From a virus (lineage: Duplodnaviria > Heunggongvirae > Uroviricota > Caudoviricetes): a DNA stretch of 27,882 bases. Positions 757 to 27,362 of this stretch are shown in pieces. The DNA is taken from IMG/VR virus record IMGVR_UViG_2698536647_000011, positions 1 through 27,882 of that record; one strand, 5' to 3'. How positions within the stretch are numbered: the stretch's first letter is position 1; each line of letters begins with the position of its first letter. The notes beneath the pieces are model-generated. The model was not told where the DNA came from and searched no databases. It saw only the letters and a list, made by a program, of their open reading frames with translations. Both the position numbers and the translations under genes were made by a program.

Positions 757-1686
757 AGTTCCTCCAAGGGTTGTTTTTTTGCGTCTGTCGAGTGCTTCGC
801 GCATCACGCCGAGCGCATCGGTATTGTTAACAAGTTCATCCGCCAGTCCGTTATCCAAAGACTCCTGGCCGGAGAATACTGCCGCTTCGGTGTCCAGCAC
901 GTCCTGAACAGACATGCCGGTATAAGCGGAAACCTTTTCGGCAAACATCTGACGAGTGGCATCGATACGCGTCTGGAAATCAGCACGCACATCTTTCGGA
1001 AGCTTTTCGTAAGGGTTGCCGTCGACCTTGCGATCGCCGCTGTAAATCAGCGTGACCTCAACGCCGTTAGTTTTGAGCGCAGCGCCATAGTTGCTGTGCG
1101 CCATCATGACCCCAATGGAGCCGGTTCTGGCCGTTTGTGTGACCAGCCGTCGCGATGCCGAACTGGCTATAAGCTGCCCTGCACTGCAGTTCATGTCATT
1201 GGCCAGCGCCCAGATGGGTTTGATATCGCGCATACGGGCTATAATGTCGGCGCAGTCAAACGCCCCGGACACCATTCCACCCGGCGTATCCATATCCAGA
1301 AGAATGCCGTCAACGCCGGGGTCACTGATTGCCTGCTGCAGGCGAGCAATGATCCCGTTGTAACCCGTCATGCCGGAATAAGGCTGAAGCGCACGGGTTT
1401 TACTGACCAGCGTGCCGGAAACCGGCAAGACCGCGATACCATTTGCCACCTGATAGCTGCGTGATGGACGGGGATCCATGTCATCATCCTCACCAAACAG
1501 CGCCAGCGGTTCGGCTATTTGTCCGGCATCAAGCGTGATGCCAGAGACGGTATCTGTCAGCCGGGTGATGCCCAACTGGCCAGCCAGCGCGCAAAAGAAA
1601 ACCCGCGCATAGGCGGGTTCAAGCATCAGCGGCTCATTAAAGGCCATACTGGCAATATGCGGAAGATTACGCAGCTCGTGCGCCAT
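343..1686 (-). CDS. C: Minor capsid protein C / prohead protease (S49 ClpP/SppA-like), lambda gpC-like
   Basis: 447 aa; [31 protein letters not shown]... is near-identical in pattern to lambda gpC; start overlaps portal gene 3' end as in lambda. Confidence 0.9.
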   Translation of the reverse strand: MAHELRNLPHIASMAFNEPLMLEPAYARVFFCALAGQLGITRLTDTVSGITLDAGQIAEPLALFGEDDDMDPRPSRSYQVANGIAVLPVSGTLVSKTRALQPYSGMTGYNGIIARLQQAISDPGVDGILLDMDTPGGMVSGAFDCADIIARMRDIKPIWALANDMNCSAGQLIASSASRRLVTQTARTGSIGVMMAHSNYGAALKTNGVEVTLIYSGDRKVDGNPYEKLPKDVRADFQTRIDATRQMFAEKVSAYTGMSVQDVLDTEAAVFSGQESLDNGLADELVNNTDALGVMREALDRRKKTTLGGTMPSPSASAVTTKPVDQAATQTTASAEQVTTVDTTIASVAAPVDVSAQVTAAVAAENSRIMGILNCDEAKGRESQARALAETPGMTVESAQRILAAAPQSAQARTDTALDRLMETAPGALPAGSASSDAADDLLNTPV

Positions 1687-22848: not shown

Positions 22849-25800
22849 ATGGAATTTCCATATGTAGTTAAAGCCACGCAAAAGTCGGGAAAGCCTGATG
22901 CTTTTGTCTGGTTCACTGCAAAAACAGAGGCTCGCGCCAATCTGATGCTGGATGTTGCGCTGGAAGATGCAGGTATCGAAACAGGTAGGGGTAAGGACTA
23001 CGCCAAACCGATTCGCACTGATTTCCCAGTTGTCGACGGCCTGCCGAAAGAAGGTGAAGTTGATTTTACCTGGTGTGATCGCTACGAGCTTCAGGACGAT
23101 GGGCGCACCTGGCTGCCAAAAGCCGCTGGTGTGTCTACTGGTTCCGTTGACGCCCCCTACACACCTACTCCGACCGTAATCGTTGAAGATGCGACTGCGT
23201 CCGAAATTGTCCCGGTTGAAATCCGTACTCCAGCGGTCCGCTTTGCCGTCCATCTGATGAACGATAAATACCAAACCCACGTCACTAAAGAGCAGCAGTT
23301 GGCTGCCAGCGAAATGTCACTGGATGAAGGCAATACATATCTCCATAGCCTGCTTGTGGCAAGGAACGATGTGCCCGCGACCGCCAAACTCAGCCTGAAT
23401 GCTGAGTGGAAAATGATTCGGGCGGTTAAGGACATTTTCACACCAGACGAAGAGCACGAACCAAGATTGATCGCTGCATTCATGTCTGACTGGGTGAACA
23501 CGGATGCCGGTGACCGCAATCAACTGATAGAAGACTGGCGCAGTGGTAAGTTGCAGTTGCTCAAAACTGAAACCAGCAGCGGTGCTAACGTTACAACGGG
23601 TCAAGATCTCACTGTTGAGGACGGCATCCAGGCCGACGAGCACGGCCGGGCAGAAGGTGGCGTCGTTGATAGTGAAGTCGATACCGAAGAGCAATCCCAG
23701 CAGATACAGCAACCGAACCTGATCGTTGTTGCCACCCTGCCTTTCCGCCAGCGCGTACTGGCTCAGTTCATCGGTGATGGTGAATATCTCTATCACATCG
23801 ACGCAGGGCAGAAAAATGAGATTGTCCGCCTTGAGATGGACACCGATGACGCGTACGTCCAGAACCTGCTGCTGGCAGCTGAGAATGTGGAAGCATTCAA
23901 AAAAGCCATTGAGCACGATATTCATAAAGTCGTGAATGCCGTTAAGAAAGTCTTCCCTGTCGATGGAAAAATCCCTGAACTCGCAACCTTAATCCAGTTT
24001 TTGAAATTGTGGTTCGCTACAGATCACATCGACCGCGGTATCCTCATTCGCGAATGGGCCGCCGGTAATCGCATCAGTAGTGTGCAGCGTACTGATTCCG
24101 GCACTAATGCCGACGGCGGTTACGTCACTGACCGTGGACCTGACGCACACCACACACTGGACACTCTCGATTTAGAGATTGCGTGTGCCCTTCTGCCTAT
24201 GGACTTCAACCACTTCGAGATCCCGGGCAGCATTCTTCGTCGCGCTAAAGAAATCGTGACCAAAAAAGAAGAACCATGGAAATCATGGAGCAACATCCTG
24301 CGCAATCAGCCAGGCGTTCTGGGTGTTAACCGCACGGCTATTTTTAACCTGGTACGTATCGCACCGGAAAATATTCATTTAACTCCTGTCGCTCACCTGG
24401 AATTTGTTAACCAGACCATGACAGCCGCGTTCAATTCCGCGGTCGAGTTATTGCCGTTGCATGAGGCTGAACCCGCAGCACAGGAAATTCCCCAACCTGA
24501 AGGTAAGGAGTCTCCGCGCAAATCCTTCTGCACTCACGAAGAGAACCTGCAACGCGTGCGTGAAGAAGGAGCACGCCGCCGCGCAGAGGAAGCGGCAGCA
24601 CAACCGCAGAAAGTCGAACAAGAACTGGTTAAAAATGTCGGCAACGGAATATTCGACGTTACGGCTTTGCTGCAGAACTCAGCAACTCATGGCACGAAAA
24701 AGGCTACGGAGACCACCAGCAATGTGCAGGTTCAAGAAACTGTCAGTGATGAAAAACAAGCTGGTGATGAAGTACAGCCAGGCGAAAGCAGTCTGGAGTC
24801 TGGTGAAGAGTCAGATACCAGCCAGAAGGACGATGTAGACCAGAATACGGATTCTGTCGCCAAAAATAGCGATTCTGTAAGCCAAACCGAACCAGTTGCA
24901 GCACAAACCGAGCCAGAAGCGCAATCTGACGAACCAGCTGTTGTTTATCCCGCTTATTTCGAGCCAGGCCGCTATGAAGGGCTGCCAAACGAGGTTTACC
25001 ACGCCGCCAACGGCATCAGCTCAACCCAGGTGAAAGATGCGCGCGTTTCGCTGATGTACTTCAATGCGCGCCACGTAGAGAAAACCATCGTCAAAGAGCG
25101 CTCAGCGGTGCTGGACATGGGCAACTTGGTGCATGCGCTGGCGTTGCAGCCTGAACTACTGGACGCAGAATTCAGCGTTGAACCGGTGATCCCTGAAGGC
25201 GCATTCACAACGGCCGCGACCCTGCGCGCCTTTATCGATGAGCACAATGCCAGCCTGCCGGCGCTGCTGTCTGCCGACGACATCAAGGTGTTACTGGAAG
25301 AGTACAACGCCACCCTGCCGCCGCAGGTTCCGCTTGGCGCTAACCTGGAAGAAACGGCACAGAACTATATGGCGCTGCCAGCTGACTTCCAGCGTATTGA
25401 TGGTGACCAGAAGCAGACGGCGACGGCAATGAAGGCATGCATTAAAGAGTACAACGCCACCCTGCCGCCGCCGGTTAAAACCAGCGGCAGCCGTGACGCG
25501 CTGCTGGAGCAGTTGGCAATCATCAACCCTGACCTTGTGGCTCAGGAAGCACAGAAACCGGCACCACTGAAAGTGTCCGGTACCAAAGCAGACATGATCC
25601 AGGCCGTGAAGGCAGTCAAACCAGATGCCGTATTTGCCGACGAACTGCTGGATGCCTGGCGCGATAACCCGGAAGGAAAAGTGCTGGTCACCCGCCAGCA
25701 GCTGAGCACCGCGCTGAATATTCAAAAAGCGCTTCTGGCACACCCGACCGCCGGCATGCTGCTGACCCACCCTAGCCGAGCCGTTGAGGTGAGCTACTTT

Positions 25801-26238
25801 GGTTTTGACGAGGAGACGGGCTTGGAAGTTCGTGTGCGCCCTGACCTTGAGATCGACCTGGATGGCGTGCGTATAGGTGCAGACCTGAAAACCATCAGCA
25901 TGTGGAATGTTAAGCAGGAAAGCCTGCGCGCCAGGCTACACCGGGAAATTATTGAACGTGATTATCACCTGAGCGCGGCTATGTACTGCGAAACCGCAGC
26001 GCTGGATCAGTTCTTCTGGATTTTCGTCAACAAAGACGAGAACTACCACTGGATCGCCATCATCGAGGCATCCGCTGAACTACTGGAGCTGGGTATGCTC
26101 GAGTACCGCAAAGCGATGCGCAATATCGCAACCGGATTCGACACAGGTGAATGGCCAGCGCCAATCACTGCTGACTACACCGACGAACTGAACGACTTCG
26201 ACCTGCGCCGCCTTGAAGCGCTGCGTACTCAGGCATAA
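22849..26238 (+). CDS. recE: RecE-like exonuclease VIII (1129 aa) with C-terminal PD-(D/E)xK nuclease domain carrying a tandem-repeat insertion
   Basis: N-terminal ...[10 protein letters not shown]...[24 protein letters not shown]... and ...[37 protein letters not shown]..., C-terminal ...[19 protein letters not shown]..., ...[10 protein letters not shown]...IGADLKT... match Rac RecE segments from memory. Confidence 0.85.
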   Translation: [1129 protein letters not shown]

Positions 26239-26249
26239 GGGGAATGATG

Positions 26250-27362
26250 ATGGAAAACACGAATATCGTAACCGCTGAACAGCAGACTCCAAACACGATC
26301 TCAGCCAGCAATGCCATTTTCAACGTGCAGGCTTTAACCCAGCTTCAGTCTGTCGCCGGGTTGATGGCACAGGCAGCCGTAACGGTGCCTGAGCACCTCC
26401 GCGGCAATCCGGCAGACTGCATGGCCATCATCATGCAGGCGATGCAGTGGGGTATGAACCCTTACGCCGTGGCGCAAAAGACGCACCTGGTTAACGGTGT
26501 CCTGGGATACGAAGCGCAACTGGTTAATGCGGTGATCTCCAGCTCAAACGCCATCGTTGGCCGCTTTCACTATGAGTACGAGGGCGACTGGTCGAAATGT
26601 GCCAGCAGCCGCGAGATAACCGTTAAAAAGCCTGCGAAAGGTGGCGGGACGTACGACAAGAAAGAAATGGTACGCGGTTGGGAAAGTGCTGATGAACAAG
26701 GACTGTCGGTACGGGTAGGTGCCGTTATTCGCGGTGAAAGTGATATCACCTGGGGAGAGCCTGTTTTCCTCTCCAGCGTAATCACACGTAATTCTCCACT
26801 TTGGGTATCAAACCCGAAACAGCAGATCGCTTATCTGGCACTCAAATACTGGGCGCGCCTATATTGCCCTGCAGTTGTTCTTGGTGTGTACACCCCTGAT
26901 GAGATTGAACAGCGCACAGAAAAAGAGATCAACCCAACGCCGCAACGCGTTAGCCTGGCTGATATCTCAGGTGACACCGTCACAACCACGCAAAGCGCAC
27001 AGGAATCGTCGGTAAATGTCGACTCTCTTGCCGATGATTTCCGCGAACGCATCGAATCTGCTCAGGACGTGGATAGCGCCAAATCGCTGCGTGCCGACAT
27101 TGAAACGGCGAAAGCTACGCTGGGATCCGCACTATTCACCGAGCTGAAAAACAAAGCCGTAAAGCGTTATTACCTAGTGGATGCACGCAACAAGGTTGAG
27201 GAGGCTATTAAATCCCTGCCCCAGCCCGACGAGCCGCATGCAGCCGAACGGTTCGCTGAAGCCGAGCGCATGCTTGCATCTTCAAAGCGTCACTTAGGCG
27301 ATGAACTGCACGATCAATTCAGCATCACCCTGGCGGATATGAAACCGGAATACGTGGCCTGA
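26250..27362 (+). CDS. Single-strand annealing protein (Bet/RecT family), partner of RecE
   Basis: ...CMAIIMQAMQWGMNPYA... and ...NPKQQIAYLALKYWARLYCPAVVLGVYTPDE... parallel lambda Bet (...FIALLIVANQYGLNPWT..., ...HPKRMLRHKAMIQCARLAF...); third of three tandem ATGs has best RBS spacing. Confidence 0.8.
   Translation: MENTNIVTAEQQTPNTISASNAIFNVQALTQLQSVAGLMAQAAVTVPEHLRGNPADCMAIIMQAMQWGMNPYAVAQKTHLVNGVLGYEAQLVNAVISSSNAIVGRFHYEYEGDWSKCASSREITVKKPAKGGGTYDKKEMVRGWESADEQGLSVRVGAVIRGESDITWGEPVFLSSVITRNSPLWVSNPKQQIAYLALKYWARLYCPAVVLGVYTPDEIEQRTEKEINPTPQRVSLADISGDTVTTTQSAQESSVNVDSLADDFRERIESAQDVDSAKSLRADIETAKATLGSALFTELKNKAVKRYYLVDARNKVEEAIKSLPQPDEPHAAERFAEAERMLASSKRHLGDELHDQFSITLADMKPEYVA

Follow-up and report, generated by a model that had tools for sequence, protein, structure and literature searches.

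A prophage RecE-family exonuclease encoded in a 27,882-nucleotide stretch of a Caudoviricetes virus genome (the window throughout) carries, nested in its C-terminal nuclease domain, a predicted helical module at a site where the RecE of the K-12 Rac prophage has a short loop segment. Comparison with homologous sequences argues strongly that this module consists of two tandem repeat halves and is derived from a SAP motif. As to its function, we lean towards a folded, SAP-derived and tandem-duplicated module which sits on the rim of the RecE ring and captures double-stranded DNA (dsDNA) at its mouth. RecE and RecT are the workhorse of recombineering. The case also documents a SAP motif which is nested inside a bacterial/phage nuclease fold and has grown by internal duplication.

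The recE gene and the extra segment in its nuclease domain

The recE-family gene (Table 1) encodes an N-terminal Exonuc_VIII region (PF06630, 109.1 bits against a cut-off of 25), then an acidic linker and, at the C-terminus, the PD-(D/E)XK nuclease domain (PF12684, DUF3799, 39.4 bits against a cut-off of 26) which contains the module, and the protein matches PHROG 607 with an E-value of 1.7e-165. Among 62 aligned sequences the catalytic column of H762 is nearly invariant and those of D999, D1012 and K1014 are invariant, and all four residues align to catalytic positions of the K-12 RecE nuclease domain (3H4R) in the phmmer alignment. H762 has its counterpart in K-12 H652, and the remaining three are equivalent to residues which we take to be D748, D759 and K761 in K-12 RecE. 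The best PDB match of the AF2 model of the nuclease domain is also 3H4R (Foldseek, E-value 5.6e-10, target-normalised TM-score 0.60), and further PD-(D/E)XK nucleases come next.

Table 1. Location of the features discussed in the text, in window positions
Feature	Position	Strand	Residues or product	Description	Basis
recE-family gene	22849..26238	+	1129 aa		ORF list, Pfam, Foldseek, catalytic columns
recT partner gene	26244..27362	+	372 aa		Pfam PF03837, 125.5 bits
Module	25171..25692	+	aa 775-948	replaces K-12 RecE 665-698	3H4R alignment, K-12 numbering, AF2
Repeat half 1	25189..25404	+	aa 781-852	helices H1a 789-802, H2 809-822, H3 833-841; strongly acidic	hhalign, AF2, charge count
Repeat half 2	25396..25644	+	aa 850-932	helices H1c 858-871, H2a 882-892 (+894-901), H3b 913-923	hhalign, AF2, conservation
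Complete internal SAP-like unit	25417..25536	+	aa 857-896	TATAMKACIKEYNATLPPPVKTSGSRDALLEQLAIINPDL	family HMM positions 18-51, independent E 4.1e-5
Terminal SAP second half and tail	25549..25650	+	aa 901-934	AQKPAPLKVSGTKADMIQAVKAVKPDAVFADELL	family HMM, independent E 4.6e-11; Pfam SAP 14.2 bits
Direct DNA repeat, copy 1	25298..25329	+		encodes (E)EYNATLPPQV, end of helix H2 in half 1	
Direct DNA repeat, copy 2	25445..25476	+		31/32 against copy 1; encodes (K)EYNATLPPPV, end of helix H1c	
147-bp unit between repeats	25298..25444	+	49 aa	copy number differs between alleles	

The recT gene adjoins recE downstream in the same orientation. The window RecT is about 100 aa longer at its C-terminus than K-12 RecT (269 aa), and similarly long RecT proteins accompany the RecE of Rac-SA53 and a RecE with a single SAP motif (locus L072). 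The last 1.3 kb of the window recE is 100% identical in phage mEp237 and in many E. coli prophages, and the same length is kept at 76-89% identity in HK225, Gifsy-1, Gifsy-2, SPN3UB, FSL SP-016, PHB10, several Klebsiella prophages and the Aeromonas phage pAEv1818. In the N-terminal part of the protein a segment of about 115 aa occurs twice, at aa ~139-250 and ~311-424 (window 23260-24120; local alignment score 121; common motif W..TD..DR..LI..W..G). The RecE of mEp237 (969 aa) is otherwise near-identical to the window protein from aa ~400 and has a single copy of this segment, which accounts for most of the 160-aa difference in length between the two proteins. The linker between the N-terminal region and the nuclease (aa 561-715, 24529-24993) is of low complexity, with a net charge of -20 and a pI of 4.3, and the window RecE is acidic over its whole length.

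In a phmmer search against the PDB only 3H4R was matched, in two pieces which flank the extra segment and leave window residues ~771-942 facing chain residues ~60-91. Alignment with the translated K-12 recE gene sets window 775-948 (174 aa) against K-12 665-698 (34 aa), and the net gain is thus about 140 aa. The original prediction, which was made from the window alone, had placed about 170 extra residues inside the PD-(D/E)xK domain at 25200-25660; the extra residues are present and the site is right, but the net gain is smaller and the true span slightly wider (Table 1).

The distribution of the segment was examined in a search of 1.84 billion cluster representatives, which gave 2585 matches and supplied the diversity required; a separate protein search had yielded mostly near-identical Salmonella and E. 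coli fragments. Segment length was taken between two fixed core anchors, which are 170 aa apart in the window protein. Minimal, K-12-like forms (..FDKRTKAGKE..) have 19-31 aa between the anchors and proteins with one SAP-looking motif have 60-72 aa (for example P0241, MKAECKRQGLPVGGSKGDLIARLKEAYP). The expanded form measures 169-170 aa in 22 cluster representatives with identity down to 53%, and a longer form of 221-223 aa is found in P0121, P0166 and P0161, the last of which NCBI names as a Photobacterium protein. Stand-alone nucleases of 424-433 aa with 23-27% identity (P0219, P0235 and P0247) also have the expanded form, at 173-178 aa within slightly wider bounds. A scan of species-representative genomes, with a single module sequence as query, detected 67 loci, nearly all assigned by record title to Enterobacterales (about 50 species, among them Enterobacter, Kluyvera, Citrobacter, Klebsiella, Serratia and Pectobacterium), and in nearly all of them the match was 519-528 nt long. 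A module of the same length is present in Gifsy-1/2, HK225 and mEp237. Since length is nearly constant across the representatives and the genome loci, a large RecE subfamily has the segment as a conserved feature, and we reject a recent insertion confined to the window gene. It is extra in comparison with K-12 RecE, as the original prediction had it, yet it is a standard part of this widespread subfamily and not an insertion peculiar to the window gene. That the segment might prove standard in RecE homologues had been named beforehand as speaking against the prediction, and to this extent the prediction is half refuted.

Two contigs labelled Sphingomonas sp. and Streptomyces sp. (L062 and L066, NPDC collection) contain modules 58-60% identical to the enterobacterial one, which suggests either assembly contamination or unexpected transfer. 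In another clade (P0176-P0205) the same site is occupied by an unrelated repeat array whose units, for example GKPENQSLKPSDKVIAAVEDWIAA, are about 22-24 aa long, and the segment measures 58, 101, 139, 148 or 195 aa depending on the member; these repeats match no Pfam family.

Repeat halves, predicted fold and SAP kinship

The AF2 model of the nuclease domain, for which an alignment of 62 sequences was used, has a mean pLDDT of 96.2 and a pTM of 0.82, with every block of the segment at 89 or above. Eight helices are predicted in the module (aa 789-802, 809-822, 833-841, 858-871, 882-892, 894-901, 913-923 and 930-939), and all eight are unchanged when the module is modelled alone (pLDDT 91.1, pTM 0.68). 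Because pLDDT is high both for the domain and for the isolated module, the module is predicted to be folded. Predicted disorder in place of a DNA-binding fold had been named beforehand as an outcome that would speak against the original prediction; disorder did not appear, and with a pLDDT of 91-96 we reject a disordered linker. A Foldseek comparison of the module with the viral models of BFVD gave nothing significant (best E-value 0.049).

When a profile of 26 homologous modules was aligned to itself with hhalign, aa 781-852 matched aa 850-932 over 72 columns (probability 96.2%, E-value 2e-9). From this two-half periodicity each half can be read as three helices, H1 (ending in YNAxLP), H2 and H3. 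The element which recurs three times is only a helix end of 15-17 aa, ..E[YH]NA[ST]LP, spaced by 20 and 49 aa; its longer consensus TAxxhxAhIxE[YH]NA[ST]LP reaches z values of 4-9 in pairwise tests with shuffles. A second motif, PxPhK[TV]SG[ST][RK]...PD, occurs twice in the module (z 7.9). The three tandem units of 45 aa originally proposed are therefore not there: the spacing of the helix ends is uneven, the profile gives two halves of about 72-83 aa, and Tandem Repeats Finder reported no DNA tandem array in 24000-27000.

Divergence is somewhat quicker in the module than in the core, the mean identity to the window protein being 48.6% compared with 58-59%, and half 2 is better conserved than half 1. 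Conservation in the module is highest at the Asn residues which cap its H1-type helices and at the G-x-R/K junctions, where G880, R882 and G911 are near-invariant. The basic residues that are conserved (K855, K862, K866, K877, R882, K903, K913 and K921) are concentrated in half 2. As a whole the module is acidic, with a net charge of -11 to -12 and a pI of 4.4, half 1 strongly so, and the homologous modules are acidic without exception (26/26, net -3 to -15).

Kinship with SAP is most apparent in short relatives, in which Pfam SAP (PF02037, gathering score 23.9 bits) is nested in DUF3799 at the site of the module and scores above the cut-off (P0241 34.4, P0245 33.4 and P0263 29.6 bits); P0241 is named 'DUF3799/SAP domain' by IMG. 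The module of P0170 also passes, with 25.0 bits. The window protein stays below the cut-off with 14.0-14.2 bits (E-value 0.03-0.04, model positions 19-32 only), and for this reason we call the module SAP-derived and not a Pfam SAP domain. Pfam SAP matches 16 of the 26 modules at E<=1 (best 1.4e-5), and other modules of the set match SAP_new25, the LEM-type Thymopoietin family or Ish1. When eight modules were scanned singly, the Pfam SAP matches fell on the last SAP-type helix and one of the eight (P0170) exceeded the cut-off. In the 62-sequence alignment helix 1 of the short-protein SAP aligns to the first helix of the window module, AATLRAFIDEHN, and helix 2 to its last SAP-type helix, PLKVSGTKADMIQAVKAVKPD, which is followed in both by the tail PDAVFADE.

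A family SAP HMM was built from seven single-SAP segments, and its E-values relate to a target set of 26 sequences. In the window module it matches the lead-in and helix 1 (aa 774-801), one complete internal helix-linker-helix unit, and the terminal stretch of linker, helix 2 and tail (Table 1), the orthologue of the second SAP helix in the short, single-SAP relatives; its match at aa 805-821 is non-significant. The SAP-type glycine and basic residue at the junction of loop and helix 2 are retained, G880, R882 and G911 being at least 90% conserved and position 913 (K913) basic in 92%. The resemblance to SAP/HeH-like motifs which had been noticed in the sequence is thus borne out by the relatives, the family HMM and the modules at large, with the reservation that the window score itself is under the Pfam cut-off. 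Evolutionarily, as sequence comparison indicates, a single SAP (helix-extended-helix, H1-H3) at the rim-loop site very probably gained a middle helix, the resulting three-helix unit was then duplicated in tandem, and some lineages later gained further partial copies.

The RecE fold, the rim loops, the SAP motif and the automatic 'DUF3799/SAP' label are already known. Literature searches, incomplete in coverage and weak as evidence, returned no description of a SAP in RecE, DUF3799 or prophage exonucleases, nor of the expanded module. P0265 and P0235, two stand-alone DUF3799 nucleases with a SAP, have genes of 274-300 aa directly downstream (L073 3901-4803 and L074 4278-5102), where one would expect the gene for an annealing protein; these genes have no Pfam match, and an SSB gene is also present at one of the two loci.

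The direct DNA repeat and changes in copy number

A direct repeat of 25 bp had been reported at about 25300 and 25447, and it is indeed present: AAGAGTACAACGCCACCCTGCCGCCGC occurs twice as an exact match of 27 nt (25298-25324 and 25445-25471) and extends to 31 identical positions of 32, the copies being 147 nt apart. A third, weaker copy (75%) is found at 25238-25269. None of 100 dinucleotide-preserving shuffles of the window gave a comparable match, even with three mismatches allowed. Across species the length of the exact repeat with 147-nt spacing ranges between 10 and 32 nt, and its two copies co-vary by lineage (both encode EHNATL in L021 and L028), as would be expected if they undergo gene conversion or unequal exchange with each other.

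The unit delimited by the repeats differs in number between alleles. E. coli CUWW10 (NZ_CP182145.1) has two perfect copies of the 147-bp unit (L001 3399-3692) and a RecE of 1178 aa, and its recE differs from that of the window at 32 further positions; the perfect duplication either arose very recently or is an artefact of assembly. An additional, diverged copy of the 49-aa unit is present in P0012, and additional sub-units of 20 and 31 aa in P0013 and P0109. P0151 represents a deletion allele with 121 aa between the anchors, the missing part being precisely the 49-aa unit that separates the two EYNATLP motifs. Short identical DNA repeats which encode helix ends could serve as substrates for unequal recombination or gene conversion, and such exchange would occasionally add or remove one 49-aa unit.

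Possible role of the module and comparison with known systems

In K-12 RecE, residues 665-698 form loops on the rim of the tetramer, on the side where dsDNA enters, and are presumed to capture dsDNA (a later review from the RecE-structure laboratory); the loops are disordered and DNA was never visible in the crystals (PMC11611040). Because the module replaces these presumed capture loops, our analysis favours the capture of duplex DNA at the ring entrance as its likeliest role. In this reading residues 775-948 are an accessory domain, predicted as folded and wholly helical, which is nested inside the nuclease fold of RecE and would be situated, if the placement is transferred from the K-12 review, where the K-12 loops project from the rim. 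Four modules may crown the wide mouth of the ring, and the SAP-like loop/helix junctions, mainly those of the more basic half 2, may clasp the duplex by its backbone as it enters. Such contacts could assist the ring in locating and threading dsDNA ends and in retaining them during digestion of the 5' strand for RecT.

Caution is called for by the acidity of the module, which is unusual for a non-specific DNA binder. Since all homologous modules share it, and half 1 shows it most, a role in protein docking comes into consideration: the module could be a platform for the C-terminal domain of the long RecT, the N-terminal region of RecE or a host factor and not a DNA binder at all. We regard this as rather unlikely, because the module occupies the presumptive DNA-capture loop and its most conserved features are the SAP G-x-[KR] junctions and the cluster of basic residues. 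The long RecT C-terminus does not co-vary with the expanded module: a RecT of 358 aa also accompanies a RecE which has only the 72-aa segment with one SAP (L072), so that RecT length does not track the expansion and does not discriminate between DNA capture and protein docking.

It is less probable still that the module is mainly architectural and has no ligand of its own, its role being to stabilise the ring of four subunits or to gate it, perhaps by covering the mouth of the channel like a lid. The nuclease domain is confidently modelled as one body (pTM 0.82) and strict conservation of length fits packing constraints as well as ligand binding; on the other hand, the module alone still folds (pLDDT 91) and natural alleles with +49, -49 and +51 aa exist, which a tightly packed element should tolerate poorly. 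That the segment is a neutral product of slippage or unequal crossover tolerated in a surface loop appears very improbable and is largely refuted by the conservation data, for although short identical DNA repeats, copy-number variants and the unrelated array in the same loop of another clade would suit it, the distance between the anchors is constant (169-170 aa) in the 22 representatives, the architecture is recognisable in the 23-27% identical nucleases, where module and core are conserved to about the same degree, prediction of the fold is confident, and certain Asn, Gly and Arg positions show little or no variation.

We may tentatively suggest that the rim loop of the RecE family is an evolutionary hotspot for substrate capture, in which lineages independently grew different repeat arrays (SAP-derived three-helix units of the Gifsy/mEp237 type in one, 22-24-aa 'GKPE...KPSDK' units in another clade) and in which unequal recombination between short identical repeats, plausibly through the recombination system that the gene itself encodes, is still altering array length. 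Were this possibility true, changes in the array would adjust the way in which DNA ends or partners are engaged by the ring. RecE proteins with no SAP, with one SAP and with the two-unit module, together with alleles that have one 49-aa unit more or less, constitute a natural series for testing what the rim element adds to end binding, to processivity and to the efficiency of recombination. For structural work, too, a SAP-derived domain with a predicted fold is more tractable than the disordered K-12 loops.

Among known systems K-12 Rac RecE (3H4R) is alike in fold, catalytic residues, gene order with recT and position of the accessory segment in the chain, although identity between the nuclease domains is low (phmmer E-value 8e-5). 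Its rim segment of 34 residues is largely disordered and charge-neutral, whereas the 174 residues of the window protein are confidently predicted as helical, acidic and built from SAP-derived repeats. Single-SAP DUF3799 nucleases (P0241, P0245 and P0263), which belong to the same nuclease family, and the 72-aa single-SAP RecE proteins (P0148 group) have the SAP nested at the identical site, and the lead-in ..PEGAFTT.. and the tail ..PDAVFADE.. are common to these relatives and the window module; they possess one helix-linker-helix unit within 60-72 aa, in contrast to the eight helices and two tandem three-helix halves of the window protein. Eukaryotic SAP domains (PF02037; Tho1 1H1J, Hcc-1 2DO1 and PIAS1 1V66) are single, basic, free-standing and about 35 aa long, while the motifs of the window module are fused in one acidic domain, nested in a catalytic fold and separated by longer Pro-rich linkers. 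The rim loops of lambda exonuclease (Arg45), another toroidal 5'-3' exonuclease, contact downstream duplex DNA (PMC11611040), but they are short, carry neither SAP motif nor repeats, and belong to a trimer with subunits oriented oppositely to those of RecE. Ku70 resembles the window RecE by analogy only, as a SAP motif attached to a ring which threads onto dsDNA ends. The core protein is unrelated, and in Ku the SAP hangs from the C-terminus by a flexible linker instead of lying within a catalytic domain. The Ku70 SAP domain is reported to aid loading onto DNA ends (PMC10681742).
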